DNA from: a virus
Strand: one strand, 5' to 3'
DNA length: 64,000 nt
Virus record (IMG/VR): IMGVR_UViG_3300025000_000067
Location: 38,132 to 102,131 of that record
Shown here: positions 17-64,000 of the stretch, one piece after another
How positions within the stretch are numbered: position 1 is the stretch's first letter
Layout of the letters: each line of letters opens with the position of its first letter
The notes under the pieces: generated by a model
The model's input: the letters and a program-made list of their open reading frames with translations, nothing else
The model's database searches: none
What the model was told of the DNA's origin: nothing
Position numbers and translations under genes: made by a program

Positions 17-283
17 ATGCCTAAGGCAGAGGAACCTTCAGAAGTCATGCTAAGCCCACAAGAAGCAGTAGATACTATGTACGAGGAGACTCATAGTGAG
101 TCTGAGAATACCCTAATGTTAAGTTCCACAGTAATCTATGTTAATAAAAGGAAATCTGCCTTTTCATTACATCTTGAAAAAAGTATGGATGGATCAGAGA
201 TCAAAGAGGCGCTTTTAAGTTATGCATCCATCTTAGATGACAAGAAAGTTTATGACCTTCTGCTTGATATAGGAGGAGACTAG
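17..283 (+). CDS. hypothetical protein
   Basis: 88-aa ORF; true start may lie upstream of the window. Confidence 0.55.
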   Translation: MPKAEEPSEVMLSPQEAVDTMYEETHSESENTLMLSSTVIYVNKRKSAFSLHLEKSMDGSEIKEALLSYASILDDKKVYDLLLDIGGD

Positions 284-295
284 CATCATCCATCA

Positions 296-362
296 TCCAC
301 TTTTTAAAGATACCTATGTATATTAATAATAGGGGATAGAGCCCCTAAAATAAGTGAAGGAG
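296..362 (+). promoter_or_regulatory. repeated cassette promoter copy 1 (TCCACT-N17-TATATT) + AGGGG/CCCCT hairpin + SD
   Basis: near-identical to copies at 552, 2298 and 2888; fixed 17-bp spacer. Confidence 0.75.
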
Positions 363-370
363 CTGGTCAT

Positions 371-529
371 ATGTTAAAGAGAATCACATTAGCCCATGTC
401 GTTATCTTGGTCCTTGTAGGCATAGCAGTCTTCAGTAAATACCATGAGCCCAAAGCGGTTCAAGGATTTGGTACAAAGGACAATATTGTACCAACGTTCC
501 ATGTGACTTCAAAAGCTACTAAAATGTAA
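371..529 (+). CDS. small membrane/secreted protein (52 aa, not in ORF track)
   Basis: AAGGAG SD; MLKRITLAHVVILVLVGIAVFSKY... hydrophobic N-terminus. Confidence 0.7.
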   Translation: MLKRITLAHVVILVLVGIAVFSKYHEPKAVQGFGTKDNIVPTFHVTSKATKM

Positions 530-551
530 TCTAGGGGCCTACGGGCCCCCG

Positions 552-616
552 TCCACTTTTTTAAAAAGCCTATGTATAGTATTAGTAGGGGATGGAACCC
601 CTAAAACAAGAAGGAG
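552..616 (+). promoter_or_regulatory. repeated cassette promoter copy 2 (TCCACT-N17-TATAGT) + hairpin + SD
   Basis: direct sequence repeat; preceded by a GGGGCC/GGCCCC hairpin. Confidence 0.75.
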
Positions 617-813: not shown

Positions 814-882
814 TTACTTCGGAAGTGGGTATATTAAGAGTATAAGGGGCTCCGGCCCCTAAAACAAAAGGAGTGTTAAACG

Positions 883-2954: not shown

Positions 2955-3872
2955 GTGTTGAAGGTGCGAGACACATTTGAAATGGTCAATGGAGCGGTTA
3001 CAGTAATTTTAGGTGGAGCAGACCAGCAAGGTAAGTTTTCTTTTGAAGGTGTTAAAGTATCAACGAAACCTAACGTATTGTTTAAGTCCTATGTTCACAG
3101 CTTAGATAAAAAAGTTAGTGGAGAGCTTACAATCACCTCCCTTCGTGAGCACATCTATGGAAAGATCAAGGTTCAAGCAGATTCGGAGCTTAAAGATTAT
3201 ATCAAAAAGCATATCAATGACACGGCATTTTACACTGAGAAGGATGAATACGAATACAAGTTTTTCTCCCGCGGAGTTAACTCCAAAGATGCATATCCGG
3301 AAATTGACGAGAATATCAACTTAACTTACGGTAGTATTGGCCATGGCTTAGTTAACTGCACAATTAATAATAGATACTGTGTTTACGACCTTGTTCAGGA
3401 CAAATTTATAAGCATTAGATCATCTAGTTATAGCGATGCGGTAGATGTAACCCCACTGCAAATTTTCTATGGGAGAGAACTAAACTTCATTATTGCCCTT
3501 GAGCAGTACAAACTTGGTAAAGCTCACCCGGCCTTTACAGAAGTCGTTAACCTGAATAAGTTCCTTGAGGGTAAAAAGTCAGTGAAACTTAAAATGACCA
3601 ACGGTAAAGTTCATGAGCTTAAAAGCACATCTTCAGAAGTTCGGGCTAATCAAATTATAGAGTGCATCAATGGTGTCTTCTCTATGGAGAATAACTACCA
3701 CCTATCCCCGCGCCTTGAAAAAGATCACACAGGTTTAGAGTTCCTTGATTGCTTGCAGTTCGGTAAACAGACCTATAAAATTAATGCAGCGAACCTAGTA
3801 ATTAAAGCCCCGGCCCCAAAAGTAAAGGCACCTAAGACCCGGGTTCGGAAGTCTAAAAACGCAGCGAAGTAA
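2955..3872 (+). CDS. hypothetical protein with basic C-terminal tail
   Basis: 305-aa ORF behind SD; exact start uncertain. Confidence 0.8.
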   Translation: MLKVRDTFEMVNGAVTVILGGADQQGKFSFEGVKVSTKPNVLFKSYVHSLDKKVSGELTITSLREHIYGKIKVQADSELKDYIKKHINDTAFYTEKDEYEYKFFSRGVNSKDAYPEIDENINLTYGSIGHGLVNCTINNRYCVYDLVQDKFISIRSSSYSDAVDVTPLQIFYGRELNFIIALEQYKLGKAHPAFTEVVNLNKFLEGKKSVKLKMTNGKVHELKSTSSEVRANQIIECINGVFSMENNYHLSPRLEKDHTGLEFLDCLQFGKQTYKINAANLVIKAPAPKVKAPKTRVRKSKNAAK

Positions 3873-3914: not shown

Positions 3915-4535
3915 ATGGAATTAGCTACTTTTGAGCTACCTAAAGGCTATGAACTTCTGAAGTCTAAGGTCAAAGAGGGCGAAACAGTTGATGGTGGCCC
4001 GGTGCGTATTATCCTAGCTGTAAGAGCTTCTGACGGGGAACATGTTACCTGGGAGTACAATGACAGGAGCAAGTGTTACTGGGGTCACTACTACAGAAGT
4101 AAGTGTTACTGGGGTCACTACTACAGAAGTTTAGAGGCTGCTGAGAGAGACTTCGAAACTAGGAACCCTGACTATACGAAAGCTATCAGAGATGCTAAGG
4201 CGATCTACGAAGAAATGAAGGCCCTCTATGCAGCAGGCAATGAGAACCCAGAGGATTACTTGGTAGTAGCTAAGAAGTATGCTAACTTAGTTACTAAGTA
4301 CGGAAGTTGCAGGGATGGGCTCCATACTGAATGGACTATTCCCGGCACAACATTCCTATCTTCACGGAATACACCTACCTATACTTCCTATAAATCGTTC
4401 ACCAGACTTCCGGATTTCCTTATATTTGCTGAGGACTGTGCTATGATGGTCTATCGCCTAAACGGTGGCGAAGGGTTTACTACGCCAGAGCTTGTGAAGT
4501 TCTTAGACAGTCGGCCTAAGTTCTTAGGGGAATAA
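3915..4535 (+). CDS. hypothetical protein with duplicated KCYWGHYYRS motif
   Basis: ATG 3915 after AAGGAG. Confidence 0.75.
   Translation: MELATFELPKGYELLKSKVKEGETVDGGPVRIILAVRASDGEHVTWEYNDRSKCYWGHYYRSKCYWGHYYRSLEAAERDFETRNPDYTKAIRDAKAIYEEMKALYAAGNENPEDYLVVAKKYANLVTKYGSCRDGLHTEWTIPGTTFLSSRNTPTYTSYKSFTRLPDFLIFAEDCAMMVYRLNGGEGFTTPELVKFLDSRPKFLGE
4071..4130 (+). repeat. perfect 30-bp tandem duplication
   Basis: AAGTGTTACTGGGGTCACTACTACAGAAGT x2. Confidence 0.95.
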
Positions 4536-5632: not shown

Positions 5633-6193
5633 TTGTCAATCGAACCTATTATTTGCCCAGCAGAGGGTAATGGGAAGGTCATGGACTTTCATCAGAAACT
5701 AGGTACTATTCTAGGTCTTACAGGCTCAAAAGAGCTGTACCTATGGGCTAGTAGCTCTGCGAGTGAATACCTGTTCTGCTATGGTAATGCAGAGTACGCG
5801 GTGTCTAAGATTCATTTCTACGATCCAGCAGGGAGAGTCTACACAAATCCTCATGGGTACTTTGGTTACTGGGAGGGCGAAACTAGCTACAGGTATCGAG
5901 GTATAAGCTTTAAGACAAATCAAAAGCTTCTGAAGCGTGTGAAGCTGACGAAAGACTTCAATTGGAAAAAGTCCTACGATGAAGATATTCTGTTCTTTGT
6001 ATCCCGGGGGAGGATGGGATACACCAAACCACAAGCTGAGATATATATCCCCTTCTCATACCTTAGGAACCTAGGGTTTACCGTTGAGGTTGCAGAGTTT
6101 GATCATAATGATGATGAGATTCTGCAGGTGGCTAAGCTGGTAGCGCCAGAATTTTCTGTGATCATAGGTCAAGAAGTTAAATTGAAGGAGTAG
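5633..6193 (+). CDS. hypothetical protein
   Basis: TTG start with AAGGAG; extended -10 TGGTATGAT at 5585-5593. Confidence 0.75.
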   Translation: MSIEPIICPAEGNGKVMDFHQKLGTILGLTGSKELYLWASSSASEYLFCYGNAEYAVSKIHFYDPAGRVYTNPHGYFGYWEGETSYRYRGISFKTNQKLLKRVKLTKDFNWKKSYDEDILFFVSRGRMGYTKPQAEIYIPFSYLRNLGFTVEVAEFDHNDDEILQVAKLVAPEFSVIIGQEVKLKE

Positions 6194-7428: not shown

Positions 7429-8043
7429 ATGAAAAGTATTAAGGGGATTGCTGCAGATGCTCGAGACTTAGAACTCATTGAATTAGCCTTTGCTAAAACT
7501 GAGAGAAATCAAGCTGCAACAATCAGCTCCAAGCTAATCTACGGAGCAGCAAGGCAGTGCGGTAAAGTTGACTTCACTGCTTCAGCTTTAGAAGGCCTAC
7601 TAAAAAGTTCACCCATCGAAGTCACGTGTTGCAAATGTGGTGATAAGGGCTTAGCTGAACCTATACCAAGAGTCGATGACAACGTTAAAGAGTGGATCTA
7701 TGAGCTCTGTGACGAAGCTTTTAAGGCCCTAGAGCGAGATCCTAATATACCACCTGATGAAGAGTGCCTACCCGGTAAACCCTGCGCCCGGTGCGCTGAA
7801 ATACTAGCTGAGGTCTTCTGTTCTGAGTGCGGGTGTTTGGTAGATCTGGATGAGCTTTCCAATGAAGAACGCCCTAATAAGGGGTTGTGCAAAGACTGCT
7901 TTGAGGCTATCAGGAGAGCTGGTATTTGCTCAGTATGCGCTTCAGAAGAGTACGATGCAGATGAGTTACAGGAGAGCAGGTGTCCCAGTTGTTATGAAGA
8001 GTTTAGTGCTTACATCGGTGTACAAAAAGAGGAGGAGGAATAA
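7429..8043 (+). CDS. Cys-rich multi-CxxC protein
   Basis: six CxxC pairs; SD AGGAG. Confidence 0.75.
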   Translation: MKSIKGIAADARDLELIELAFAKTERNQAATISSKLIYGAARQCGKVDFTASALEGLLKSSPIEVTCCKCGDKGLAEPIPRVDDNVKEWIYELCDEAFKALERDPNIPPDEECLPGKPCARCAEILAEVFCSECGCLVDLDELSNEERPNKGLCKDCFEAIRRAGICSVCASEEYDADELQESRCPSCYEEFSAYIGVQKEEEE

Positions 8044-9040: not shown

Positions 9041-10172
9041 GGATTGGCATTGTCCTGAAGGATGCACGGGTGTAGCCCTTTATCAAGGTGCGTGTCCCGA
9101 TGATCTAGGTCCAGATGAACCATGTGTTAATGGAATCCTTGATGATGAGGAGTACAAAGCTTCAGAAGATTCAAGAGATGTTCCTACGCTATTCAAAACT
9201 GAGGAGGAGATACAGACAATGGTTGACTTTAACAAGCTGAGAGCTAATAGGGACCAGAAGGATAGGAGAACTCAACAGAAGACATCGGGAGTGGTTAAAC
9301 CGCTCCCTCGGACTTTTGTTGTATTAGACCTAGAGACAACGGGTTTTGATCGTGTTAATGACCGAATCATTGAAATCGGCGCGGTGAGATTTACAGATGG
9401 TGAGCCTGTGGCCATATTTAATACACTCGTTAACCCAGAAGTGCTTGTAAGTGAAGAGATAACTAAACTTACAGGGCATACCAACGAGGACCTTCTGAAG
9501 GGCATGAGTGAAGATCACGCAATTATCACCTTAATATACTTTCTTCGAAGTGAGCCTATCGTTGGCCACAATGTTCTTTTTGACTATGAGCTATTCTACC
9601 GGGCTGCTGGAAGAATTGAATGTGGTGTGTGTAACCCCTTAATCGATACACTCACCATTGCACGAGACAGGCACAAGTACCCTCACAAGCTCCCAGATAT
9701 GTGTAAGAGGTATAATGTTCACCAAGAAGGCTGGCATAGTGCTTATTTCGATGCCCTAGCATGCGGGGACCTGTTACTCGCTATGCACGCAGAGGATAAA
9801 AACTACCCCGAGGGTAAACAGGTAGCTGACTATACAAATGTGATTGGTTGGAAGAGGCAGTATGGAGAACCTAAGTGGGGACCATCATGGGTAACACTCA
9901 AAGGGCAGGGTGATATGCATGTTCAAGAAGGTCCTCGGAAGGCTAGGCAGGTTATGGTGCCTAAGCATGATAAACCAGATGCTAAGTGGTTCGGCAAAGG
10001 GTGTGCATATCAGGCATGCCAATTTGAAGAAAGTGGTGTTCAAGGGGAAGGTGTAGGTTTTCCAGTACTGACTGCCTGTAGCCATCCTGAAGCATCACAA
10101 AGCATACGAGAAGATAATTGCCAAGCCAACATGCTCTGTCCTATGGGTCTAAGTGATGACCTCCCATTTTGA
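9018..10172 (+). CDS. DEDDh 3'-5' exonuclease (DnaQ/PolC-exo-like)
   Basis: LDLETTG, IIEIGAV, GHNVLFD, DTL, HSAYFD; start uncertain (strong internal SD/ATG at 9219); ends DDLPF. Confidence 0.88.
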   Translation: MRASVMIRDWHCPEGCTGVALYQGACPDDLGPDEPCVNGILDDEEYKASEDSRDVPTLFKTEEEIQTMVDFNKLRANRDQKDRRTQQKTSGVVKPLPRTFVVLDLETTGFDRVNDRIIEIGAVRFTDGEPVAIFNTLVNPEVLVSEEITKLTGHTNEDLLKGMSEDHAIITLIYFLRSEPIVGHNVLFDYELFYRAAGRIECGVCNPLIDTLTIARDRHKYPHKLPDMCKRYNVHQEGWHSAYFDALACGDLLLAMHAEDKNYPEGKQVADYTNVIGWKRQYGEPKWGPSWVTLKGQGDMHVQEGPRKARQVMVPKHDKPDAKWFGKGCAYQACQFEESGVQGEGVGFPVLTACSHPEASQSIREDNCQANMLCPMGLSDDLPF

Positions 10173-11484: not shown

Positions 11485-12112
11485 AACGTGTACTGATGTT
11501 GTAACCAGTCCTAATGGTAATCCTCTAGATTGTCTAAACTGTAGGTGCGTAGGGTGTGGGGAGTATAAAGATCCCTATAATGCAAACTGTGACTTATACC
11601 CAGAGCACGGGTGCCCTAAGTACCCACTAATACCTGAACCTGAGAAATGGTCCTATAACTTTACTGAAGACGGTCTATGGGATAATGAAGTCTTTGAAAC
11701 AGGTGAAGAAGCTTACGAGGCTGGTAAAGCGGAAGCCCTAGATCGTGGGGGCGATACCTTCTACATTGGCCAGTTGGTGCCTATCACTATTTCTAGTAAT
11801 GCTGCTGTTGATGTAGATGGGATATTTGATCTAATATCCCAACAATTAGACGATGAGTATGGGTCAGACTTCGAGCACGGTGAGCGGTGGTACGATGCCA
11901 TTACATCCGATGATAAGCTCACCTTGGAGGAGATGCTTAATGCAGCGTTCCACGAGTGGCTTCAGAAGACCAGCAACCAACCTACGAGTTTAACGATTAT
12001 TGACATTGATGAGTACTGCAAGACTGCAAACACATGGGTAGAGAAGCTTAGTACGCAGAAGGCAAAGAGGCTAAGTGAAAAATTAGGGGAGGATATGCTA
12101 AATGAAAACTGA
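11477..12112 (+). CDS. Cys-rich module + acidic domain
   Basis: ATG 11477 after GAAGGAGG; same module. Confidence 0.75.
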   Translation: MPKTCTDVVTSPNGNPLDCLNCRCVGCGEYKDPYNANCDLYPEHGCPKYPLIPEPEKWSYNFTEDGLWDNEVFETGEEAYEAGKAEALDRGGDTFYIGQLVPITISSNAAVDVDGIFDLISQQLDDEYGSDFEHGERWYDAITSDDKLTLEEMLNAAFHEWLQKTSNQPTSLTIIDIDEYCKTANTWVEKLSTQKAKRLSEKLGEDMLNEN

Positions 12113-14148: not shown

Positions 14149-14155
14149 TCTTCTG

Positions 14156-14188
14156 AAGCCCTAGTGCCACAAGGCATTGGGGCTTTTC
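14156..14188 (+). terminator. intrinsic terminator ending the accessory region
   Basis: AAGCCCTAGTGCC/GGCATTGGGGCTT stem + T-tract. Confidence 0.7.
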
Positions 14189-17300: not shown

Positions 17301-17891
17301 ATGAACAGGTACATACCTATGAATGAATTAACTAAGATAGTTGTTGAAGGCGATATCTTTAAAGTAGACAGCAGAATTATTGCTAAAAACTTTGAAAAGG
17401 ACCACAGGCACGTATTACGAGATATTGATAATCTAATTGCGCAAATAGATGTGTCCAAAATTGGGCACATCTCTGAAAGCTATTTTGTGCCAGCTAAGTA
17501 TGCAGATGTGCATGGTAGGGTACAAAGATTCTATGATATGACTTTTAGAGGTTTTATACTTCTTACTATGGGTTTTACAGGGGAAAAGGCATTTGCTTGG
17601 AAATTAAAGTACATTGATACTTTTGAGTGGCTGAGACAAGAGTACTTAAAAAAGCTAAAAGTACCTGAGCATCCCTTTATAAACCTAGCTACTATGACAG
17701 GTCTTCAAATGGATGTTTTTGAGCGTTTTGTGCCAGATGGTATGACGCTGAGGGAAGGGGCTTTTTGGTTTAATACAGACTTCTATAAGGATATAATTAG
17801 ATCCTATGAAAAGGGAGTAAGGAAGTTTGAGCGTAAACAAGCTAGGCTAAAACAAAAGAAATTAGAATCATCTTCAGAAGTTGAGGACTAA
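17301..17891 (+). CDS. Rha family phage regulatory protein
   Basis: DSRIIAKNFEKDHRHVLRDI ... GFILLTMGFTGEKA..WKLKYI. Confidence 0.88.
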   Translation: MNRYIPMNELTKIVVEGDIFKVDSRIIAKNFEKDHRHVLRDIDNLIAQIDVSKIGHISESYFVPAKYADVHGRVQRFYDMTFRGFILLTMGFTGEKAFAWKLKYIDTFEWLRQEYLKKLKVPEHPFINLATMTGLQMDVFERFVPDGMTLREGAFWFNTDFYKDIIRSYEKGVRKFERKQARLKQKKLESSSEVED

Positions 17892-42361: not shown

Positions 42362-42391
42362 TTACACCTACTTCGGAAGGTGGTGAAATGA

Positions 42392-44035: not shown

Positions 44036-45505
44036 ATGTTTGAAAACTTTAACGGCCTTGAGGACGGGTTTGGGCAAGGTACAGTTGGGGAACTTGAGGA
44101 GCTTAATAAAGCGCTAGGCACCGGGGAGCAGGGAGATGCCTATGGTAGTTTTAATGATATGTCGGCGCTGCGTCCACAGTCTTTAGAAGCAACCCTTAAA
44201 GTGGTTACCGCGACGACAGACCAAATTAAGTTCTGGAAACGCATCGGGAAGAAACAGGCATTTAATACTGTTGAAGAGTTCAACGTAATGGACAGCATGG
44301 GGGGAAATTCTTCTCCGTTCTTCGTTGAGGGTGGCCTTCCAAATGAAGAAGATTCACACTACCTCCGTCAAGCCCAGTACGTTAAATTCCTCGGGACAAC
44401 TCGTGTCATCACACATCCTGCAACTATAGTGCGTAACACAGTTGGTGATATCGTTGCCCGCGAAACTACAAATGGAACATCTTGGCTTTTGATGCAGCTT
44501 GAAAAAGCTCTATACTTTGGTAATTCCGCTCTTGACCCCTTGGCTTTTGACGGAGTTATGATGCAGGTTATAAATGCTGTTGCTGGAAAAACCTATGCGA
44601 ATCAGCACGTTATTGATATGAAGGGTCAACCACTGGATGAGAATACCATGGAAGACGCTTCAGCGATTATTGCAGATAACTTCGGAAGAGGTAAATTAGA
44701 GCTGCACTTAACGAACCAAGTTAATAAGGACCTATCCAAGCTTGTTATGGGCTCAAGTGGTCGGCAGCGGGTAATGATGGGCCAAGGTCAGGAAATAATG
44801 TTAGGCCAGCCTATCGGAGGCTACATGGCAAATGCTGGCCCGATTGAGTTTGTTAATAACATATTCCTTAAGCCACAGGCTACGGTTCCTTCTGCCTCAG
44901 CTAAAGGGGCGCCTGCTGTACCAACATACCCGGGCGGTCAGATAGTAGCCGGATCATCCGGGGCTACAATCCCTTCAGGAACCTACTACTACTTTGTAAC
45001 AGCTAAAAACAGCGCAGGAGAATCAGCACCAGTGTCTATGGGGTCTGTAGCTGTAACTCTAGGACAAGCAGTTACTTTAACCATTAATCGAGTAGTCGGT
45101 GATCCTCCGGCAAAGTCTTATAAGGTCTATCGTGGTACGAAGTCTACAGCTGCTGATGCCTTGTTTGCCTTTGAAATCAAGGACTCTGGTGCAGAAACAA
45201 CTCAAGCTATTATAGACACAAATGCTGATATTCCGGGAACACATAGTGCAATGGCACTAGATAATGATCCAGAAAACGTATTATCATTTAAACAGCTTGC
45301 ACCACTTATGAAGCTGCCTTTAGCTCGCATTTCAGCTGCAGAGCGCTTTATGATCCTGCTTTATGGCATGATTCAAGTGTACAACCCTCGGAGAATCATC
45401 GTGTTTAAAAACATTGGAACACTGGGCCTTAACTCCAACCGTGAGCTCTTCACCCCAAATTATGATGCTCCTAGCTTCGGTACAGTTCGCCCAAGCCTTC
45501 AGTAA
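44036..45505 (+). CDS. major capsid protein (SPO1/K-like, FN3-like insertion)
   Basis: ELNKALGTG, ALRPQSLE, EKALYFGNS, YYYFVTAKNSAGESAP. Confidence 0.9.
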   Translation: MFENFNGLEDGFGQGTVGELEELNKALGTGEQGDAYGSFNDMSALRPQSLEATLKVVTATTDQIKFWKRIGKKQAFNTVEEFNVMDSMGGNSSPFFVEGGLPNEEDSHYLRQAQYVKFLGTTRVITHPATIVRNTVGDIVARETTNGTSWLLMQLEKALYFGNSALDPLAFDGVMMQVINAVAGKTYANQHVIDMKGQPLDENTMEDASAIIADNFGRGKLELHLTNQVNKDLSKLVMGSSGRQRVMMGQGQEIMLGQPIGGYMANAGPIEFVNNIFLKPQATVPSASAKGAPAVPTYPGGQIVAGSSGATIPSGTYYYFVTAKNSAGESAPVSMGSVAVTLGQAVTLTINRVVGDPPAKSYKVYRGTKSTAADALFAFEIKDSGAETTQAIIDTNADIPGTHSAMALDNDPENVLSFKQLAPLMKLPLARISAAERFMILLYGMIQVYNPRRIIVFKNIGTLGLNSNRELFTPNYDAPSFGTVRPSLQ

Positions 45506-47028: not shown

Positions 47029-47763
47029 GTGCAAACTCCTGTATTAAATGTTGTTAAGCTTGAGGAGATGCTTGATCGTAGGGGCAGACCTGTTAGGTGG
47101 CAAGAAACTATTATATGCTCCTGCTGGAACCCTGATAGCGGTTCTCCGGATTATACGTGCCTAGCTTGCCATGGTAAAGGGCATGTGTACCAGACACCTA
47201 TAGAATCAAAAGCCTTAATTACGAGTATCACACTGAGTAAGGACTTTGAGGCCATGGCCGGGGTATTTGAAGTTGGGGATGCGGTAATGACCGTACCAAA
47301 AAGAATCCCTGTACGCCACCCACTAAATAGTATGCCTACAGGTCAATACACAAACAACCCAATCTTCGGTATTGGTATGTATGATAAGATCACACTTCTT
47401 GATGATGAGTTCAAGTCTTCTGAAGTTCTGGTCAGAGACACACCTATTAATGCTCGACCACCAGATACCCTGCTTAATACTGACATCACCCACGTTAAGT
47501 CCATACAAAAGTACAATCCTATGACAGGTGGAGTAGTGATCTATAGACCTGGGATAGACTTTGAAATGGCAGGAAATGTCGTACTATGGCTTGAAGATGG
47601 GCTGTCACCTGAAGTAGGGGAGCAGTATAGCGCTGCATATTACCATAGGCCAACATACGTAGTTACAGCAACGCTACCGAAGCCTAGACATCAAGATGGT
47701 CAGGACTTTCCGCGCTATGTAGCCCTGCGCTACTTGTCTGGAGGAGTTGAGCGCATTGTATGA
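47029..47763 (+). CDS. head closure/neck protein
   Basis: CSC...C..C.G.G pattern; position. Confidence 0.65.
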   Translation: MQTPVLNVVKLEEMLDRRGRPVRWQETIICSCWNPDSGSPDYTCLACHGKGHVYQTPIESKALITSITLSKDFEAMAGVFEVGDAVMTVPKRIPVRHPLNSMPTGQYTNNPIFGIGMYDKITLLDDEFKSSEVLVRDTPINARPPDTLLNTDITHVKSIQKYNPMTGGVVIYRPGIDFEMAGNVVLWLEDGLSPEVGEQYSAAYYHRPTYVVTATLPKPRHQDGQDFPRYVALRYLSGGVERIV

Positions 47764-48599
47764 GTTTGCTAACAATTGCAGCAGATGTTCCTAACCTAGA
47801 TAATGTGCTCAGATCCGTTGAAAAGGCAGGACAGGGGAACCTCCCGTATACTTCTGAAGCTGTGCGTGCAGCTCTTACAGATGTTATACAGAGAACTTGG
47901 GTTGAGTATGCGTCTGGTGTTACAGTGACCTACTCAGGGGGAACGTTCCACATTAGCGTTGTTTCGGGGGAATACACCCGCAGTATTCAAGAAGGTCTTA
48001 AGATGCTGGGGAATCTTACAGGTGAAGTTATGACGACCTCAGGACATGGAAGACTCATTGAAGATGGCATAAAACCCTACAACCAAAAAGACGGACTCCT
48101 ATCATCACCAAAAGCTAAGGTTGGAAAAGGTGGCTCTCGATACATCACAGTACCCTTTAGGCATGGAACACCGGGGACAGTTACGATGGCAGCGATGCCT
48201 AAGCACGTACACGACCAAGCAAAGACACTTGGGTTCAGTCGCAAGAATAACTTCTTAACTGCCTTAGTTACCGGACGAAAGTATGCATGGGGTGGTCACC
48301 TGCAGGAGACGTCTGATGGGCAAAGAAGTCACGTAAGCCCGCACCCAGGCAAGGGGTACACATGGAAAACCGGGCTATTTAGTGGCATGGTGAAAATGGG
48401 TAAGCCAAACCATTCTCAATATATGACCTTCCGAAGAGTATCGACTAACTCAGATCCTGCATCTTGGCAATTCCCTGGGGTTAAGCCTAGGCCAATACGT
48501 GAAGCAGTTGTGGAAAATACACGAGAGGAAGTCTTACAGCTTATTCGGAGTGGCTTTGAGATGGACCTGTACTTTATGGGCTTAGGGGGTGGTCAATAG
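47760..48599 (+). CDS. neck/tail completion protein
   Basis: YITVPFRHGTP, YMTFRRVS..S.P.SW..PG; position. Confidence 0.6.
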   Translation: MSLLTIAADVPNLDNVLRSVEKAGQGNLPYTSEAVRAALTDVIQRTWVEYASGVTVTYSGGTFHISVVSGEYTRSIQEGLKMLGNLTGEVMTTSGHGRLIEDGIKPYNQKDGLLSSPKAKVGKGGSRYITVPFRHGTPGTVTMAAMPKHVHDQAKTLGFSRKNNFLTALVTGRKYAWGGHLQETSDGQRSHVSPHPGKGYTWKTGLFSGMVKMGKPNHSQYMTFRRVSTNSDPASWQFPGVKPRPIREAVVENTREEVLQLIRSGFEMDLYFMGLGGGQ

Positions 48600-49173: not shown

Positions 49174-49389
49174 ATGCCTGATAAAAAGAAAACACCTTCA
49201 GAAGAAGAAGATGTGGCGTACCCAGCAGAATTAGCCCGTCAAATGACCTTAGCTGAATTTATCACTGAGTTAAGGCCACATAGGGGGCTAGTGGCTAGTT
49301 TTAAGGTTGAAGAAAAGGACCTCAGCCCTAGGAGTCAAGTAGCGTGGGCAGAGGCCTTTAAAGCTCAATCTGAACGCGTCTATAAATAG
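49174..49389 (+). CDS. hypothetical protein
   Basis: SD. Confidence 0.6.
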   Translation: MPDKKKTPSEEEDVAYPAELARQMTLAEFITELRPHRGLVASFKVEEKDLSPRSQVAWAEAFKAQSERVYK

Positions 49390-51408: not shown

Positions 51409-51517
51409 AACACTCGCATATTAACTTCCGAAGTATATAGAATAACCCCTACCAAAAAGGTGGGGGTTATTCTATAATAAGGCAATAAGCTAGTACTAAT
51501 AAAAAGGGGTTGGCAAA

Positions 51518-52323: not shown

Positions 52324-55300
52324 GTGGTAGGCATGAGCTCTACAGAACAGGCTGTACGTGTTACAGCACAAGGAGAATTTGGACAGCTGCAACGAGGGCT
52401 TAAAGACCTTCAAAGCGATCTTAAAAATGTTTTAGGCGAAGTGGATAAGGGTGCACGTAGGGGTGGGATGTTTGATGATACCCAGCTAAGGGCACTAGAT
52501 GTTTACAGAAGGCGCTTTAAAGAAACCCTAGCGGATCTAGACAAGGAATTTGAAAAACAAGCAGACTCAGTAGATGCTCTTAACGCGAAGATGAAAAAAG
52601 CTTACGCTTGGGAACGTGAAGAGCTTAAGGATCAGATAAAACAGCGTCGAGAGAATTTAGACGTTATTGATAGAACAAGGAGACAGCTTGAGCAGACGTA
52701 CCAAAGGCGTAATACAGAAGCTCAAAGCTACGGGAGCTCTAACCCTGCACCTAGTGGAAGATCTAGTGGATCAGATAGCGGATCAGATAGCGGATTTGCT
52801 ATGCTCGGGGCAGGTTCTGTCATATCAAGAACTTTGGGTGCTGTTAGTATTATCGGTAAATTTGCCTTAGGCTTAGCTGGCGTGGGTAGCCTACTTGGTA
52901 TGGCTACAGAAGCTTATCAGTTAGCACATACACGAGAGATAGGATCACTAGACTTAGCACAACGTCTTAGAGGTAATGGCTTTAGTGGCTCAAATACGAA
53001 AATGTATGACGATGTAGGAGCTATTGGGCGAAGCAGTGGTATGGGATACTCTCAAGCGGAGTCATGGCAGTTACAGGAGGCCTATACTTCAGAAGCTGGG
53101 GAGTTGGGGGCAAAAGGACAGGAAGCTCTTCAGAAGTTCTCTCGTGGCTATGGCTTAGATGCTACTACTGTGGGTAGTATGGCCGGAAATGCTAAACAAC
53201 TTGGTGGAGTATCTGGGCCTAAACAATTTGCTGATATGATTGCTACCTCTGTAGAAAAGTCAGGTATGACACCTCGCATTTTAGAGGTTATGAAGACAAG
53301 TAATACCCTCCTTCAGAATCTCAATACATCCTTTAAAGATGGAAGCACTTCGCAGATCATAGCATATCAGACAACCCTAGATAGACTAGGTAACGAAAAT
53401 GGTATGACAAGGCTCACAGGTGCTCAAGGTGCTAATGTTATAGGCGGACTGGGAGGAATATACCAACCGGACAACGATAAGTGGAAATGGATGGGTATAA
53501 CAGCCCTTCAGAAGTACAATCCAGACAAATATAGCAAAATGGGACTCTATGATCTGGAGTCATCGTTTGAAGATGGCATGCAGAATAAAGATAACATACC
53601 AGCTATGGCAAAGTACCTTAAAGAGACATCCGGTGGGGATAATGATAACTTTAAGCGCATGATGCAAGGTTGGCTTATGGACGGTGGATTTAAGGCCACA
53701 AAGAGTGAAGTAACAGAACTCGATAAAGTAACTGATGGGTTTACAGCTTTTGATCCAGACAAAATCGATAAGGTCTTAGGCACCGACTCTGGGGCAAAAT
53801 ACGACACCGAGAGAAAGGGTGAACTAGGGCAGCATATTATGGACGTTGATGCTGAATTTAGTAAAAACTTGGAAAAAATAGGACAGAAAATGCTACCTAT
53901 TGTTACACAAATGAAGTCTAGCATTAATGATCTATATGGATTAGTTGATGGATCAGCTAACTTTTCTGAAGTTTTTGGAAAGATAGTAAAATTATTTGAA
54001 GATACAGGTGTAGGAGCCTTTGTATCAACTCCAAAGGAACCTACAGATGGTACAGGGGGTACAGACTCAGGCTTAGGAACAGCAGCAGGCATAGTTATTG
54101 GTGGTGGAATAGCTGGGCGCTTAGGTGTTAAAGCCTATGAAAGGTTTAGAAGTGCAGACACAGAACTAATAGAAGAAGGTCCGACTAGAAGTAGGGCCGA
54201 ACAGTACCAAAGATTGCAAGACAGGGTTACATCTTCAGAAGGGGTTGGTGGCTCAGCTTCAGAAGGAGTGGGTACTAGGTTTGGGCGTTTTGTAAATAAG
54301 GTAAAGGGACTTGGCAAAGGTACTAATACCTTAAACAGTATACTTAGTGTCATACCTGCTGGTATAGCGGGTTATGAGGCTGAAAAAGAGAATCCAGATG
54401 CTCCTTTTATAGACAAATTAGGTAGCGCACTGGAAAAGCTACTCCCTTTTGACTGGAATAAGACTAATTTCTCAGCAGAGTCTATGGGTGACTCTGATAT
54501 GCTAAGTACTACGAGCACAAAGCCCGGAAGTCTAGCTAATTTGAGTAAAATGGGTGTTACAGATATCTTAGATCTTAGCACAAAAGGAAAATCATCTTTA
54601 GAGGACTTAAAAACTAGGGGTTTAATGTCCTATACATCCATTGAACAAATCACAGCAGCTAAATTCGATGAAATTAAACAGATTCACAAAAATTACTATG
54701 ATCTTTTAGGTATTAAAGACGGTGTAAGTAGCGGTGTTGGCCGTACAGCAGGGAATACGACGGAAGAAAAAGTGTGGAACATGTTAGCTGATAAGGGTCT
54801 TAAGCCCGGAGCTATTTCAGGTATCATGGGTAATATTAATGCTGAATCAAGTTTTGACCCAAAAGCTGTTAATCCTAGTAGTGGGGCTTATGGTGTTGGT
54901 CAATGGCTAGGTGGTCGCCTAGACAACTTAAAAACCTATGCAAAAGACTTAGGTAAAGATCCTAGTGACCTGCAGACGCAAATAGATTTCCTTTGGAAGG
55001 AATTTAATGGTGGCGACCCAACGACAGGCTCTATCCTAAATTCGCATGGTGGACTTAGTGCCTTTAATGAGATGAATGCTTCTGATGCATCTAGCACCTT
55101 TGAAAAATCTTTTGAACGCTCCGGTGGCGCTCTATTACAGGAACGTGCAAAATCAGCGAACGGCTATTTTAATAAGTATGGAAGCCTAGGGACTTCAGTA
55201 GGCTCTCCCACAGGTGGTGTTTTTAGGAATTGGCAGAGCAAGATAACATCAAAGTTCGGAGCTAACCGTGGTGACCATGAGCACTCAGGCTTAGACATTG

Positions 55301-57470: not shown

Positions 57471-57501
57471 GTACACCTTCGGAAGGGAATGGGGGTATTT
57501 T

Positions 57502-58991: not shown

Positions 58992-59912
58992 ATGATAGAG
59001 CATGTACTAACAGATGCTGATTCCCTACAATCACTAGCTCTTACATACCTAAAAGATGCTACACGCTGGGGGGAAATTGCTGATTATAATAGGCTTAGGT
59101 ATCCGTACATACTTCGAAGTAAGGAAGATATAAAAGACTTCTTCGGAAGTGGTTATATTACTATTGTACGTTCTGGGTACCAAAATGAAGCGCTTATACA
59201 AAAGGGTTGGACGTTTAAAACAGAATCAAGCCTACTAACAGGTAACACTGTTAGGGTATTCGAAGTTATAGAGGATACTGTTATACCCGCCGGGGTTCAG
59301 CAGTACGATGTTCCTCTCCGGTGCATCGTCCCTGGAGACTTCGGAAATGTTATGGAGTATACGATTACAGAAGCTGGGGATAATACCGTGCAGCTGAGTG
59401 GTATACAGTACCTAAGCATCTATAATGAATTAAAATTTTCTGGTGGTAGGACCTTGGATGTACGAATTACCGGAGAGTCTATATACATCCCTGTAGCATC
59501 AACTATTATGGCCCCAGAGGACGCCATAAAGATGCTTAGTTTCCTCGGTGGAGAAGATATACTACTTGATGATACAGGAAACCTTATTATAGAAGACGGT
59601 GGGGACTTGGCATCCATAAGTGGCACCAACAATATCCGCTATGCTGTAGCATCACGCTTAAAATCGGAGATTAATGATATAGCTCAACACCCGGAATACG
59701 GAACAGACTTACAGGACTTAATTGGCAGCCCAAACATCTCTAACCGAGAAAAGCTTATGGAGATTGCTGTCTACAGGTCTTTAGCTCAGGAAAGTAGGAT
59801 TACAGAAGTTTCTATAGTGAGCCTTACCGTGACTGGGACAAGTGTATTGTTAAGCTTAACTTACAAACTGTCGATGAACGGAGCATCGGACAGTATCACC
59901 CTAAGCTTATAG
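58992..59912 (+). CDS. LysM-like + gp25/W-like baseplate protein
   Basis: DSLQSLA..YL....W..IA..N; C-terminal HPEYG. Confidence 0.7.
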   Translation: MIEHVLTDADSLQSLALTYLKDATRWGEIADYNRLRYPYILRSKEDIKDFFGSGYITIVRSGYQNEALIQKGWTFKTESSLLTGNTVRVFEVIEDTVIPAGVQQYDVPLRCIVPGDFGNVMEYTITEAGDNTVQLSGIQYLSIYNELKFSGGRTLDVRITGESIYIPVASTIMAPEDAIKMLSFLGGEDILLDDTGNLIIEDGGDLASISGTNNIRYAVASRLKSEINDIAQHPEYGTDLQDLIGSPNISNREKLMEIAVYRSLAQESRITEVSIVSLTVTGTSVLLSLTYKLSMNGASDSITLSL

Positions 59913-59937: not shown

Positions 59938-61107
59938 ATGTCTTTTGAGCGAAAATCTATGGAGTACCTCACCAATCGGATGATTGGTTGGGTGCAGGGT
60001 GTTTCCACTAGATTGACTGACTTTCGCGTCGGTTCAAAAAATCGGGCCCTTATTGAAGCTGTAGCATTAGTTACTGAGGAGCTCTATGATAAAGTTTTTA
60101 GAGGCCTTAGACAGCTCATTGAAGATAGTATCTATGCTATCTTCAACTTCAATAAGATACCTGTAATCTATACTACAGGCATAGTCACTTTCTCTAGGAG
60201 TACGCCTGCAAACCAGAATTATACTATTACTGTAGGGACAATGCTTATGTCCCAAGCAACTCAGTACAGTGCACCTATTCGCTTCTATACGAGTGCTGAT
60301 GCTGTGCTATCTACTGGGACTACATCTGTGGACGTCCCTGTCATCTGTGATTTACCGGGAGTACAAGGAAACATAGCAGCAGGAACTTTAACGACATTTA
60401 TACAAAAACCTATAGGTATTGAAGCAGTTACAAATTCCTTAGAATTTAGTACAGGTGCAGAAGAAGAAACTAAAGAAAATCAGAAAGATAGATTTCAAGA
60501 ATTCTTTGAAGCCCAAGCCCGGGGAGTTCTGCAATCCGTGGAGTATGGTGCTAAACTGGCAAAAGTAATAGACCCTACAACAGGCAGTCCTATAGAAGTC
60601 GTGTTGCAGGCCGTAGCTATAGAAAACCTACCTATCCGTAAAGGCGAAGTTGACCTCTATGTGTGGAATGGTGTAGGAGTAGCATCAGCAGACCTTATTA
60701 CTGCCATAAATACTATACTAAAAGGGTACTATGATTCGGATGGAAATCCTGTGTATGGGTATAAGCCCGCTGGTATTATGGTAAACGTATACTCAGCGTC
60801 AACTAAACTCGTCAAAGTTAGAGTAATTGCTGTAGCTGAAATATACACAACTGTAGACCTTCTGAAGCCTCTAATGGAGGCTGAGATAACTAGGTACTTT
60901 GCCAGTTTAATTATTGGGCAAATGATCGAGCAGCCAAACCAGACCGTTGTACAATCTGCTTTACAGGCAGGTATTAAAAAAATAGATGGAGTGTATGATG
61001 TGAAGGTATACCTGTCAATTGATGATGGGGTAACATTTACCACAGATAATGTTACTGTGCTAGGGGCACAAATTGCTCTAGTAAGTTTTCCGGTAGTGTA
61101 CGTTTAA
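59938..61107 (+). CDS. baseplate J-like wedge protein
   Basis: TDFRVGS, G..GN, TGAEEET. Confidence 0.85.
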   Translation: MSFERKSMEYLTNRMIGWVQGVSTRLTDFRVGSKNRALIEAVALVTEELYDKVFRGLRQLIEDSIYAIFNFNKIPVIYTTGIVTFSRSTPANQNYTITVGTMLMSQATQYSAPIRFYTSADAVLSTGTTSVDVPVICDLPGVQGNIAAGTLTTFIQKPIGIEAVTNSLEFSTGAEEETKENQKDRFQEFFEAQARGVLQSVEYGAKLAKVIDPTTGSPIEVVLQAVAIENLPIRKGEVDLYVWNGVGVASADLITAINTILKGYYDSDGNPVYGYKPAGIMVNVYSASTKLVKVRVIAVAEIYTTVDLLKPLMEAEITRYFASLIIGQMIEQPNQTVVQSALQAGIKKIDGVYDVKVYLSIDDGVTFTTDNVTVLGAQIALVSFPVVYV

Positions 61108-61120
61108 GGGGTGAAGTTAC

Positions 61121-62593
61121 TTGAAAATGATGAGCAAGCTTTTAGGCCACCTAGGTAGGGTATGGAACACAGCCCCTAAGGACTTTGAATCTTTAGTCTT
61201 ACAGCAAAATAACGGTGCACATAGCCTAATAACTGTAGAAACAAGTCAAATATCCTTTCACTCTACACCCTTTCGAAGCAGCATGACTGCCAGGCAAGTT
61301 CTATCTCTAGATGCATATAGTCTTAGTGGCCTTGCCGAGGCGATCAATAGCCTAGGGTACAGCGCATATATTACACAGAAAGCGGTAGACTCTGGTTATG
61401 GAAGTCTAAAAGCCTGTACTTTGATGCCTATTGAAAACGTACCTATACTAAGCGCTACGTTATCATCCTTTACTTCACCTTTATGGCAACTTTTATATCC
61501 GTTATCCCGCCTACTAGAGGAATTAGATAACGATACAGAAAAAGCTATGGCTCAGGTGTACACGAGTTCAATTACCGGGACGTGGATGGATTATTGGGCA
61601 ACTTTTTTTAAGCTTAAGCGCTTACCTGAGGAATCGGATACTCACTTCCAAAAACGCCTGTTTGTGGCTCTAATGAACATGAAAACCAATAATGTAGCCC
61701 TTCAGGAGCTTCTGAAGTACACAACAGGTGGCAGTGCTATAGTTTCAGACCATGCACCAGCTCAGTTTAAGGTTTTAATTGACCCTAAATATATGAGTAC
61801 GGTAGCATCTGTTCACCAAATTATTACAGAAGCTAAAGGTGCCGGCATTGATTACTTCCTAAATTACCTAAGTGTAGAAGAGGAGAGCTACATAGCCTAC
61901 TTCAGGGATACTAACGGGGTGTCTTTTGCAGACTCTGATGCCGTGCGTAGCTTAATGAACATGACCTGTTCTGAGCATACTTATGATTATGAACAGGACA
62001 GGCTCAAGATGTTTCGGGTCGGCTTTACCAAAATACTTACAGGTGGTTTTAAGCTGCTGCCGAAGACAACAGTATCTAAGAGTATGAGAGCAGTGCTTGC
62101 TGAAAGCTCTATGAGTGCCCTAGGGTCCTATACTGAAGCTTTTGTAGCTCCCCTAACCTCAGACTCTAAGAGTATGCAGACAACTAATTCTGATGTATAC
62201 TTAGCACCAACCGAAGCTGAGCACAGAGAAGTGCACTTGAGTGAACTGACTGAAGCAGTTGTAGACATACACACACTGGAAGTATTATGTACTTTCCTAG
62301 AGGAATTTGAAACCCCGCTAGAAGAAGTTGCATCTAAGATAGCACTTGTAACGTGCAATAATGCCTATGTACCACCTTCCGAAGTTCAGAGTAAAAGTCT
62401 AGTGCTTACCACAGAGGAAAGTTATAAAGATCCTACTATTAAGGGTACTTGGGGATTTACGACTAACTATAGTCGCACTTTTAGCCCTACAAATGCATTG
62501 GCTAAGGCTAAGTTATCAAAACGAGATATACGAATGCAGGAAACTTTAAGTATGCTTTTAACAGTGGATGGAGTAATCATCAAAGCGATGTAA
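61121..62593 (+). CDS. baseplate wedge protein (gpI-like)
   Basis: G.WMDYWA.FF...R..EESD; K.AGI. Confidence 0.6.
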   Translation: MKMMSKLLGHLGRVWNTAPKDFESLVLQQNNGAHSLITVETSQISFHSTPFRSSMTARQVLSLDAYSLSGLAEAINSLGYSAYITQKAVDSGYGSLKACTLMPIENVPILSATLSSFTSPLWQLLYPLSRLLEELDNDTEKAMAQVYTSSITGTWMDYWATFFKLKRLPEESDTHFQKRLFVALMNMKTNNVALQELLKYTTGGSAIVSDHAPAQFKVLIDPKYMSTVASVHQIITEAKGAGIDYFLNYLSVEEESYIAYFRDTNGVSFADSDAVRSLMNMTCSEHTYDYEQDRLKMFRVGFTKILTGGFKLLPKTTVSKSMRAVLAESSMSALGSYTEAFVAPLTSDSKSMQTTNSDVYLAPTEAEHREVHLSELTEAVVDIHTLEVLCTFLEEFETPLEEVASKIALVTCNNAYVPPSEVQSKSLVLTTEESYKDPTIKGTWGFTTNYSRTFSPTNALAKAKLSKRDIRMQETLSMLLTVDGVIIKAM

Positions 62594-62613
62594 AAATAGA
62601 GGAGGAAAACACT

Positions 62614-63189
62614 ATGCAATACTCAGAAGAGTTCAAAACCCCAAAGGGATTTATAGATGTTTACGGCCACAAGGGTAGCCCAGAGTTTGTAAAAATTGGA
62701 CTAGGGGAAAAACAGGGGTACTTCGTTATCCCTAAAGATTCAATTGTTCAAGAAATGCATGTTAAGAATTTAGTGGTTGCTAAGGCATCTAAATTTATGG
62801 CAAAGCGTATGGTCCCCGGTGTTTCATGGGGTGCAGGAATAGGATACCTAGAGCTTGGCACAGGTGTTGGCACAGGAACTACTCAAGCACCGCAGGCAGA
62901 AGCTTCAACTCAGGAGGCACTTAGAACATCACTTATACGGAATCCTATTTCAGCGTGGACCTATCTTGACGGTGATGGCGCACCAACTGCTACAGAGACA
63001 AACGTGGTGCAGTACTCAACAACTTTCACAGAATTAGAGGCCATAGGTGCTCTAGTGGAGATGGGCTTATTCGGTGGTGACGCAACAGCTACTGCAGGGA
63101 CCGGATATATGTTTAACTACAAGGTCTTTGCGGTCTGGAATAAAGATGACACTATGCAATTAACTATCCGCTGGGAGATAACATACTAA
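62614..63189 (+). CDS. baseplate/tail fibre attachment protein
   Basis: KNLVV, LGTG, EMGLFGG, W.ITY. Confidence 0.6.
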   Translation: MQYSEEFKTPKGFIDVYGHKGSPEFVKIGLGEKQGYFVIPKDSIVQEMHVKNLVVAKASKFMAKRMVPGVSWGAGIGYLELGTGVGTGTTQAPQAEASTQEALRTSLIRNPISAWTYLDGDGAPTATETNVVQYSTTFTELEAIGALVEMGLFGGDATATAGTGYMFNYKVFAVWNKDDTMQLTIRWEITY

Positions 63190-63229
63190 AACTAGGTGCC
63201 ATACCTAGGTTAAGAGGAGGGGTAGTCAG

Positions 63230-64000
63230 ATGCCTGATTTTACAGTTGTGGATAAATTTGACCCGAGTAAGTCATTTACTCGGGTGGTCTTCGGAAGTGA
63301 TTCTGTTCTTTTAGAGGTAGAGTTAAATGAGCTTCAGAAAATCCAGAATTACCAGCGGGCACTTTTAGCACGCTTACTAGTGACTAATGGGTTTGTAGCA
63401 AAAACAGCTATGACGCTTTCTAGTAGCATTCTGACCGTCCCAGCAGATACTATACTAGTTAATGGGGACTTCATCGAAGTCCTAGAGAATATGTCACTAG
63501 GTGTCTCAAGCGGTGACACGGTGTACGCTGCTATTTCTGAAGTTGAGGTTACGAGCTTAACCACCCTAAAAAAGAGCGGAAATCTAAGTGGTGGGAGTAC
63601 CATTACTAACGATCTTTTAGATGGTCGCGTGGGTGAAGAAACTACGCATCGGACACAAAAGCAAATTCAGCTTGTGAAGTCAAATTCTGACACAAGCAAA
63701 ACCTATATACCAGTAGCAACGATTACAAGTGTAGACACATTTACTGACAATCGTACTTTAGTAGTACCCACTTCTGTAATACAAACCCAACCCCTCACCA
63801 TTCCACATGGACTAAGCTTAGTCACAACAGACCGCAAAACGCCCATTAATGCGCTTGCGTTTAATGGAATAACTAGACTTAATATACTAGGTAAAGATGG
63901 AAACTGTGAGGATATTAGTAAGTGGGGTTATGGAGGATGTTCTATCTCACTTGATTCTTCTAATTATGCAGTTGGTAGTAATAGCATTAAAATAACGTTA
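63230..64000 (+). CDS. tail fibre-type protein, truncated by window end
   Basis: GAGGAGG SD; MPDFTVVDKFDPSKSF..LLEVELNELQ; appears open to the window end. Confidence 0.65.
   Translation, partial: MPDFTVVDKFDPSKSFTRVVFGSDSVLLEVELNELQKIQNYQRALLARLLVTNGFVAKTAMTLSSSILTVPADTILVNGDFIEVLENMSLGVSSGDTVYAAISEVEVTSLTTLKKSGNLSGGSTITNDLLDGRVGEETTHRTQKQIQLVKSNSDTSKTYIPVATITSVDTFTDNRTLVVPTSVIQTQPLTIPHGLSLVTTDRKTPINALAFNGITRLNILGKDGNCEDISKWGYGGCSISLDSSNYAVGSNSIKITL

Follow-up and report, generated by a model that had tools for sequence, protein, structure and literature searches.

A 9-letter palindrome with a free center base, CTTCNGAAG, recurs at a genome-wide density of about 1 copy per kb in a ~100-kb myovirus, where it is selected as double-stranded DNA. 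We lean toward the view that it is the docking word of one of the phage's own proteins, a symmetric DNA binder with sequence specificity; the binding, the reader, and the effect are all things that we infer from sequence. The stretch analyzed here (the window) is 64,000 nucleotides (nt) long and comprises bases 38132 to 102131 of a 102,131-bp virus record that is rated complete (IMGVR_UViG_3300025000_000067, referred to as G000). The window contains 51 exact copies of CTTCNGAAG, whereas dinucleotide shuffles average 0.91 and never exceed 4, and the whole record contains 79, compared to 5 for the reversed control GAAGNCTTC. All four center bases occur among the sites, and the forms of the word include CTTCGGAAG and CTTCAGAAG; in most relatives the word is CTTCSGAAG. 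The original prediction for this DNA had put the count at about 50 copies, with about 1 expected, and had described all four center bases, several reading frames, and intergenic copies. Each of these properties is seen and every coordinate listed there was found, with an excess stronger than the one reported.

A scan for spaced palindromes in G000, covering half-sites of 3 to 6 nt and gaps of 0 to 8 nt, identifies CTTCNGAAG as the lone extreme outlier, with 79 copies observed versus 4.1 expected from half-site frequencies. No comparable palindrome is equally frequent, the next unrelated one reaching 18 copies versus 6.3. GAAG is by far the commonest sequence after CTTCN, and CTTC and GAAG in other spacings or arrangements show no enrichment. 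In a pool of ~800 sites from six genomes, the flanks carry less than 0.17 bit per position and the edges of the motif are sharp, indicating that the unit is exactly 8+1 bases; the idea that the word is a piece of a longer motif was rejected, as the flanks hold neither extended complementarity nor information. The copies have a mean spacing of 1.29 kb and a largest gap of 4.5 kb and are spread more evenly than random, with a gap coefficient of variation of 0.76 versus 0.98 (~0.5% of simulations are as low). Variants with one mismatch are enriched ~3-fold (158 versus 55). Such an excess is expected from decay and turnover of selected sites and is the opposite of the depletion that a repair drive would leave.

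Most copies (84%) lie inside genes, in mRNA of one strand. Frame 0, read as L-x-K, accounts for 33 sites, frame 1 (x-S-E-x) for 23 to 26, and frame 2 for 4 to 7, with further sites in minus-strand genes and in intergenic DNA. Codon-preserving shuffles, set beforehand as the refuting test, fall far short of the 79 copies observed: synonymous-codon shuffles give 21.9 and codon-order shuffles give 15.7, both totals including 13 intergenic sites that were left in place. In coding DNA only, 66 sites are observed versus ~9 (synonymous) and ~3 (codon order). The same is seen peptide by peptide. L-[QPRL]-K tripeptides are spelled CTT-CNG-AAG in 33 of 85 cases (39%), versus 2.7 expected from codon usage, and 26 of 33 [SPTA]-S-E-[VADEG] tetrapeptides (79%) carry the word, versus 3.5 expected. 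Relatives reach 100/123 (81%) of the L-x-K and 42/47 (89 to 90%) of the S-E opportunities, and in G003, a motif-poor relative, 0 of 43 and 1 of 17 of these opportunities carry the word. The shuffles and the peptide-opportunity counts reject peptide or codon bias as the cause, and the word is kept mainly by synonymous codon choice. Outside genes, as defined by simple open reading frame (ORF) calls, site density is 1.3 to 2.3 times the coding density in all five complete genomes. Intergenic sites in G000 favor a G/C center (11 of 13 as first scored, P = 0.0025); excluding two sites that belong to small or open-ended ORFs gives 10 of 11.

Comparison with relatives shows the same selection acting on the DNA itself. 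In G002, which shares 81.5% nucleotide identity with G000, 26 of 32 aligned sites are retained, versus 25.6% under a null of arbitrary 8-position windows (binomial P = 7e-11), and one intergenic site whose center is G in G000 has C in G002 and is still a site. G003 (~67% nucleotide identity) retains 1 of 23 aligned sites. At 8 of 20 orthologous coding sites its peptide is identical but written in other codons, L-Q-K for instance being spelled CTACAAAAG, and at the other 12 of 20 positions the amino acids differ. An origin of the sites by 9-bp insertion was rejected, as the sites differ from G003 by substitutions. In four relatives that use G or C at the center of nearly every site, these two centers are about equally common on the coding strand (G/C, 54/59, 57/63, 55/64, and 40/56), indicating that the mRNA has no preference for a cUUCGg loop. 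The word is selected at the DNA level, is symmetric, and is read as double-stranded DNA. The earlier statement that L-x-K coding alone is insufficient to explain the copies is therefore supported by shuffles, conservation, peptide usage, and strand symmetry alike.

The sites in the window, together with the two giant genes that hold 13 of them, are listed below. All sites are exact matches in window coordinates, with no strand assigned; statements on G002 come from match plus alignment, and lengths are in amino acids (aa).

36..63297: array of 51 exact CTTCNGAAG copies, part of 79 genome-wide
27452..34918, + strand: giant protein 1, a 2488-aa polyvalent protein (RadC-like JAB, LPD1), 6 sites
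35024..41662, + strand: giant protein 2, a 2212-aa polyvalent protein with SNF2 ATPase, 7 sites
36..44: word site, center A
817..825: word site, center G, intergenic
3631..3639: word site, center A
3954..3962: word site, center T
5927..5935: word site, center T
7940..7948: word site, center A
9160..9168: word site, center A, conserved in G002
9492..9500: word site, center T, conserved in G002
11960..11968: word site, center A, lost in G002
14150..14158: word site, center T, intergenic, 2 nt past the stop of ORF 13582-14148, with a terminator-like hairpin just after
17872..17880: word site, center A, lost in G002
20891..20899: word site, center T, conserved in G002
21388..21396: word site, center G, intergenic; center C in G002
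22891..22899: word site, center T, portal gene; L-L-K in G003 too, without the word
24581..24589: word site, center C
25057..25065: word site, center C
28898..28906: word site, center G, giant protein 1
29150..29158: word site, center A, giant protein 1
30549..30557: word site, center G, giant protein 1
30999..31007: word site, center T, giant protein 1
31685..31693: word site, center A, giant protein 1
32297..32305: word site, center A, giant protein 1
34920..34928: word site, center G, intergenic, 2 nt past the giant protein 1 stop
35504..35512: word site, center G, giant protein 2
37124..37132: word site, center T, giant protein 2
38739..38747: word site, center T, giant protein 2
38897..38905: word site, center A, giant protein 2; L-Q-K in G003 is CTTCAAAAG
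39266..39274: word site, center A, giant protein 2
39623..39631: word site, center G, giant protein 2; L-R-K, with L-K-K in G003
40550..40558: word site, center A, giant protein 2
41731..41739: word site, center T, inside small ORF 41682-41933; first scored intergenic
42204..42212: word site, center C, intergenic, within the spacer of promoter-like TTGCCA-N17-TACTAT
42371..42379: word site, center G, intergenic, overlapping the ribosome-binding site of the prohead protease gene
42773..42781: word site, center A, protease gene
44680..44688: word site, center G, major capsid gene; sole aligned site shared with motif-poor G003
47417..47425: word site, center T
47851..47859: word site, center T
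48428..48436: word site, center C
49196..49204: word site, center A
51425..51433: word site, center C, intergenic
53087..53095: word site, center A, tape-measure-like gene
53128..53136: word site, center A
53506..53514: word site, center A
54233..54241: word site, center A
54257..54265: word site, center A
57477..57485: word site, center G, intergenic
59141..59149: word site, center G
60859..60867: word site, center T
61709..61717: word site, center T
62376..62384: word site, center C
63289..63297: word site, center G, in open-ended ORF 63230-64000

Relatives were recovered by a pattern scan of public viral contigs and by capsid-protein searches. At capsid identities of at least 65%, 18 contigs with GC contents of 43 to 58% all carry 0.8 to 2.5 sites per kb, with the sole exception of the sublineage G003, G004, and G005, which has 2 sites in 80 kb. 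The five complete motif-rich genomes contain 79, 133, 161, 191, and 134 sites, and relatives with capsid identities of 43% or less lack the word. In a maximum-likelihood tree of the capsid protein, the motif-rich contigs and G003/G004/G005 form one clade with 100/100 support, and the motif-poor sublineage is placed next to G000/G002 as its sister, again with 100/100 support. This nesting of the poor sublineage among rich ones makes one gain and one loss the simplest history. The center base differs between rich lineages, G or C making up 95% of sites in G017 (GC 45%) versus 37% in G000 (GC 43%).

Other words were seen among these and more distant genomes. A replacement word in G003 was rejected, the only candidate being a weak excess of CCTCNGAGG (7 versus 0.8). 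CCTCWGAGG is weakly in excess in G003 (7 versus 0.8) and G005 (6 versus 0.3), too weakly for a switched word; one copy aligns with a G000 CTTCAGAAG site and one with a near-site. G017 (IMGVR_UViG_3300042934_000426), with 133 copies of CTTCSGAAG, is also enriched in the gapless palindrome CTTCGAAG (68 versus 14.8 expected), an enrichment not seen in G000 (3 copies) or G016. The same word in the unrelated G026 and G027 was set aside, as it belongs to local 17-bp iterons beside an integrase-like gene that has no homologue here. Those arrays (L085:2281-2512 and L053:7505-7910) repeat the 17-bp palindrome ATTTCTTCGGAAGAAAT with a 21-bp period around an AT-rich core and adjoin a 493-aa protein whose N terminus resembles a Bacteroidota-type integrase arm-binding domain. 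G029 has triplets with a 30-bp period.

To find genes lost together with the word, we screened for G000 genes shared by the other four complete motif-rich genomes and undetectable in G003 (83% complete) and G005, first among 44 core genes and then among all ORFs of 35 aa or more. Only four genes qualify, encoding a polymerase-exonuclease, a SprT-like protein, and proteins of 84 aa and 67 aa. The polymerase-exonuclease gene sits in the unassembled part of G003. The remaining three, all of a nucleic-acid-binding type, are as follows.

Genome 5288-6352 (L018:5288-6352), 32.8 kb upstream of window base 1: Spartan/SprT-like zinc protein
27186..27440, + strand: 84-aa protein (P0064), predicted winged helix and candidate reader, from model, Foldseek, and profile search
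41959..42162, + strand: 67-aa C4 zinc-ribbon protein, lost with the word in G003 and G005

The SprT-like gene is present in 5/5 complete motif-rich genomes and, as close homologues, in 10 further motif-rich loci; it is absent from G003, all within a single clade. Its product is modeled as a metalloprotease with a zinc subdomain, and the best matches of the model are to human SPRTN with DNA (6MDX/6MDW, E = 5e-4). The SprT-like core aligns with these structures over 173 to 185 columns, covering the metalloprotease and the DNA-contacting zinc subdomain; SPRTN itself recognizes DNA structure and not a sequence word. Unlike SPRTN, the phage protein adds a C-terminal alpha/beta domain, in most cases with a helix-turn-helix, and in G000 the catalytic Glu is Gln. 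The long forms (G017, G021, G022, and G023) have an intact HExxH and a C-terminal HTH_50 domain (E = 7e-8). The G000/G002 lineage instead has HQxxH (seen in G000 and in the 79%-identical L252), and its C-terminal linker and helix-turn-helix are deleted. A Glu-to-Gln change of this kind is a laboratory means of inactivating such proteases, and the G000/G002 protein is probably retained in a protease-dead form. A copy of the word lies 47 to 71 nt upstream of the SprT-like gene in G000, L252, G017, and G022, with a chance expectation of only a few percent. In G003 the neighborhood of the gene is replaced by genes for a RepA_N initiator, a DnaD-like protein (DnaD/HTH_36), and an HU-like protein (Bac_DNA_binding) (L011:5200-10000; G003 25.2 to 30 kb). 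The RepA_N initiator is of plasmid type, and the replaced region is a replication-origin neighborhood.

Both small genes occur in one copy per motif-rich genome, and profile and protein searches find neither in G003 or G005, where the syntenic regions are covered. They flank the two giant polyvalent-protein genes, and the 84-aa gene lies directly upstream of these in all genomes. An AlphaFold2 model of the 84-aa protein (predicted local distance difference test score, 82) has three helices and a beta-hairpin (H-H-H), and the only Foldseek matches are winged-helix domains, among them those of TFIIIC, the B. subtilis replication terminator protein, PadR, and DnaD-N, at E values of 6e-3 or worse. 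Homologues of the zinc-ribbon protein in G017, G021, and G023 share 51 to 60% identity with it, and G003/G005 yield none. A minus-strand 102-aa ORF at 41844-42152 was discarded as an antisense shadow of the zinc-ribbon gene. In G003, giant protein 1 is split or rearranged into ORFs of 286, 1433, 84, and 364 aa.

Several other candidates were discarded as reader, modifier, or driver of the word. The PAPS-reductase gene (1495-2277) has 63 to 65%-identical homologues in unrelated motif-free phages and is absent from G017, a ParMR and DNA-translocation operon is absent from motif-rich G022 and G023, and the DUF559/MTES_1575 endonuclease is a G000-only insertion. A phage methyltransferase was likewise rejected, none having been found: methyltransferase motifs (DPPY type and PCQ/ENV) are absent from all frames of the phage. 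ParB, Noc, or MatP-type domains are absent from the ~70 phage proteins scanned, as are integrases and repressors, and Rfam has no match within the window.

The phage, which is uncultured, comes from groundwater and sediment metagenomes. Its myovirus identity is seen in the terminase, portal, protease-scaffold, capsid, sheath, and tape measure genes, and its large terminase is distantly related (32%) to those of SPO1-type Bacillus phages. Its replication and repair genes include those for a fused archaeo-eukaryotic primase and MCM-like helicase, SNF2 helicases, RuvC, a Cas4-like nuclease, ThyX, dUTPase, and dCMP deaminase. The wall-binding end of the endolysin resembles Desulfosporosinus and metagenome-assembled Bacillota proteins (51 to 62% identity over ~90 aa). 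Five candidate host genomes carry 83 to 117 copies of the word per 3 to 5 Mb versus 53 to 92 of the control, which is background, and the word is ~35 times denser in the phage than in these genomes.

The clade keeps the word at ~1 to 2 copies per kb through natural selection, and on the reading that we favor, a symmetric phage protein would dock on it along the whole chromosome, loading onto and marking phage DNA but not host DNA. The benefit would rise with each added site, which would account for the near-saturated coding opportunities. Roles that depend on coverage in this way may include self-marking of phage DNA, guarding it against DNA-tracking host enzymes, and tethering of co-injected or co-delivered proteins. 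The SprT-like protein is the leading candidate for the reader or its direct partner; taken by itself we consider this assignment possible rather than probable. Still tentatively, the array may be a clade-written "self" barcode read by a Spartan-like, DNA-docked zinc protein, possibly together with the winged-helix, zinc-ribbon, and giant polyvalent proteins. Docked in this way, the Spartan-like protein would act specifically on phage DNA, guarding or servicing it, for instance by removing or halting host proteins that move along it. The word would differ among phage groups (CTTCSGAAG here; GTTTAAAC and GTTTACAC in others), which would make this a widespread and so far undescribed protein-and-word system of diversifying specificity. 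What likelihood a phage-encoded reader retains after the SprT-like and winged-helix proteins falls to the zinc-ribbon protein or to an unseen protein.

Several observations weigh against this assignment. The link between genes and word comes from a single loss event, one coincidence in time. The SprT-like protein of the G000/G002 lineage has lost its helix-turn-helix and catalytic Glu, yet purifying selection on the word persists there; as a reader, this protein would have to rely on the zinc subdomain or the C-terminal domain. The upstream copy of the word is not seen in G021 or G023, and no copy lies consistently near the 84-aa winged-helix gene. An unrelated phage, L269, encodes a 199-aa SprT-like core only and has none of these words, and neither GTTTAAAC nor another strong palindrome is found in the unrelated SprT-bearing loci L269 and L263. 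Finally, Desulfosporosinus or other Bacillota are tentative hosts, assigned only by the similarity of the endolysin wall-binding end. The earlier proposal of a binding site for a dimeric protein is upheld in part: a dispersed, symmetric site selected at the DNA level is present, and a ParB, Noc, or MatP-type protein to go with it was not found among the ~70 phage proteins scanned.

Two alternatives keep a protein reader and change its identity. If a conserved factor of a spore-forming Bacillota host read the word, its loss in G003 would reflect a host switch, and the reader could be a helicase-nuclease with a Chi-like stop, a modification enzyme that sets a "self" mark, or a chromosome organizer. 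The failure to find a methyltransferase or ParB-like gene in the phage agrees with such a reader, as does the occurrence of the same word across phages of GC 43 to 58%, which implies different hosts; the sharp motif edges resemble those of enzyme recognition sites, and near-saturation of coding opportunities would be expected if, as with Chi, each site added to the benefit. We nevertheless regard a host reader as unlikely. Chi, uptake sequences, and HIP1 are each overrepresented in the host genome, whereas all five candidate hosts are at background for this word; signals of the Chi type are asymmetric and this word is strictly palindromic; the center preference differs between G017 and G000 at similar GC, which fits a reader evolving with the phage; and three phage genes vanish along with the word. 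Somewhat less likely again is that the 84-aa protein, acting as a winged-helix dimer, is the reader, coating the copies and tethering or guiding the giant polyvalent proteins on the incoming genome. Its predicted fold, its occurrence in exactly one copy per motif-rich genome with the syntenic slot empty in G003/G005, and its conserved place directly upstream of the polyvalent genes would suit this role, and the protein is intact and 88% conserved between G000 and G002, unlike the truncated SprT-like protein. The giant proteins themselves resemble capsid-delivered anti-defense proteins. This proposal depends on the same single loss event, no copy of the word lies consistently near the 84-aa gene, and the Foldseek E values given above are weak.

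The other alternatives do without a docked reader. A mutational or repair drive, in which conversion like that of HIP1 or very-short-patch repair moves sequences toward a methylase site, would explain why relatives convert nearly all synonymous opportunities and why the motif boundaries are sharp, but we hold it to be improbable. The core gene set includes neither a methyltransferase nor a Vsr-type gene, the sole Vsr-fold gene (26258-27160) being specific to G000 and absent from G002; one-mismatch neighbors are enriched and not depleted; amino acids are altered to make sites at the 12 of 20 positions that differ from G003; and spacing is more even than random. The HIP1-like alternative raised in the original prediction is not supported, given hosts at background, no methyltransferase signature in the phage, and the ~3-fold enrichment of one-mismatch variants. 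Most improbable, and largely refuted, is a role at the level of RNA or protein, whether as an mRNA signal such as a cUUCGg tetraloop, as a side effect of encoding L-x-K or S-E peptides, or as a promoter or operator element. The intergenic preference for G/C centers, the location of 84% of copies in one-strand mRNA, and the proximity of some copies to -10-like hexamers or a ribosome-binding site could be read in its favor. Against it, a 4-bp stem with a 1-nt loop is unable to fold, all three frames and both gene orientations are used, and peptide-preserving shuffles fall short while G003 spells the same peptides otherwise. An RNA cUUCGg tetraloop or hairpin was rejected because the coding strand carries G and C centers about equally often and the flanks lack extended complementarity, and a promoter element was rejected because placement relative to -35/-10-like hexamers is inconsistent.

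The closest published case, a palindrome of Cluster O mycobacteriophages, is similar only in kind. Literature searches for the word itself returned primers only and no paper mentioning it, and no paper was found that describes the pairing of the word with a phage's own DNA-binding protein. The Cluster O phages carry a 17-bp dyad-symmetric repeat, TGTTCGGNNNCCGAACA, with 34 copies in Corndog and none in the host genome; it lies partly in genes, is conserved in the cluster, loses sites by single base changes, and has an unknown function, and its authors propose that a dimeric protein binds it and regard a part in transcription as unlikely (PMC4351075). As there, an exact inverted repeat occurs tens of times genome-wide, is conserved in a clade, and is at background in the (here tentatively assigned) hosts. 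Unlike the 17-bp repeat, the word described here is 9 bp long and 2 to 5 times more numerous (79 to 191 per ~100 kb), lies to 84% in genes in three frames with near-saturated peptides, belongs to another host phylum and phage type, and comes with a natural lineage that has lost it.

Other dispersed words are less similar. Stoperators are asymmetric sites of 13 to 14 bp, oriented with transcription and mostly intergenic, that are bound by the monomeric repressor of temperate phages; they number dozens of copies, and site and protein specificity co-evolve between lineages. In Cluster A mycobacteriophages they are immunity repressor sites across the genome (PMC9283540, PMC6550527). Many sites are likewise spread over the phage's own genome here, but the word is a strict palindrome, 84% coding, in a phage with no integrase or repressor in the proteins scanned. 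Among cellular systems, Chi, DNA uptake sequences, KOPS/SRS, HIP1, and parS/NBS/matS are host-enriched words read by proteins, with a benefit that grows with coverage; Chi, uptake sequences, and KOPS are asymmetric, and parS, NBS, and matS are 13 to 16 bp long, with few to ~70 copies per several megabases. Unlike these, CTTCNGAAG is phage specific and at background in the candidate hosts. It resembles restriction-modification sites in being a short, sharp palindrome with a free center and differs in being enriched rather than avoided, with no phage enzyme found. Among dispersed recognition words it is unusual for its density, its near-saturation of coding opportunities, its spread over a clade of widely varying GC content, and a lineage that has lost it naturally.

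Further features of the window were noted in passing. A 300-aa DUF559/REase_MTES_1575 endonuclease with a Vsr-like fold is encoded at 26258-27160 on the minus strand, antisense inside the head module; the 970-bp segment that holds it is replaced by ~376 bp in G002 and resembles a mobile insertion. The PAPS-reductase-domain protein at 1495-2277 (phrog_424) lies within a lineage-specific ORFan block. The 730-bp "gap" between the giant protein 2 and protease genes holds two plus-strand genes, encoding an 83-aa protein (41682-41933) and the 67-aa zinc ribbon (41959-42162), both absent from the 100-aa ORF list. Downstream, at ~42255-42360 in the leader of the protease-capsid operon, an inverted repeat with ~19-nt arms (GTGTATAACACAGCTAGGATG and its complement) ~70 nt apart sits between two copies of the word and may be an RNA structure or an operator.

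Cellular words have shown how cells recognize DNA as their own and direct machines along the chromosome, and phage equivalents are hardly understood. Here, up to 80 to 90% of word-capable peptides carry the word across a clade of GC 43 to 58%, which speaks for strong pressure, and a sister lineage without the word and without three genes provides a natural control. Such words run counter to the common treatment of synonymous sites as neutral, and they are strong signatures for binning and classifying uncultured phages. If the reader is indeed Spartan-like, this would be the first function for a very common phage gene family and a new form of viral chromosome marking.

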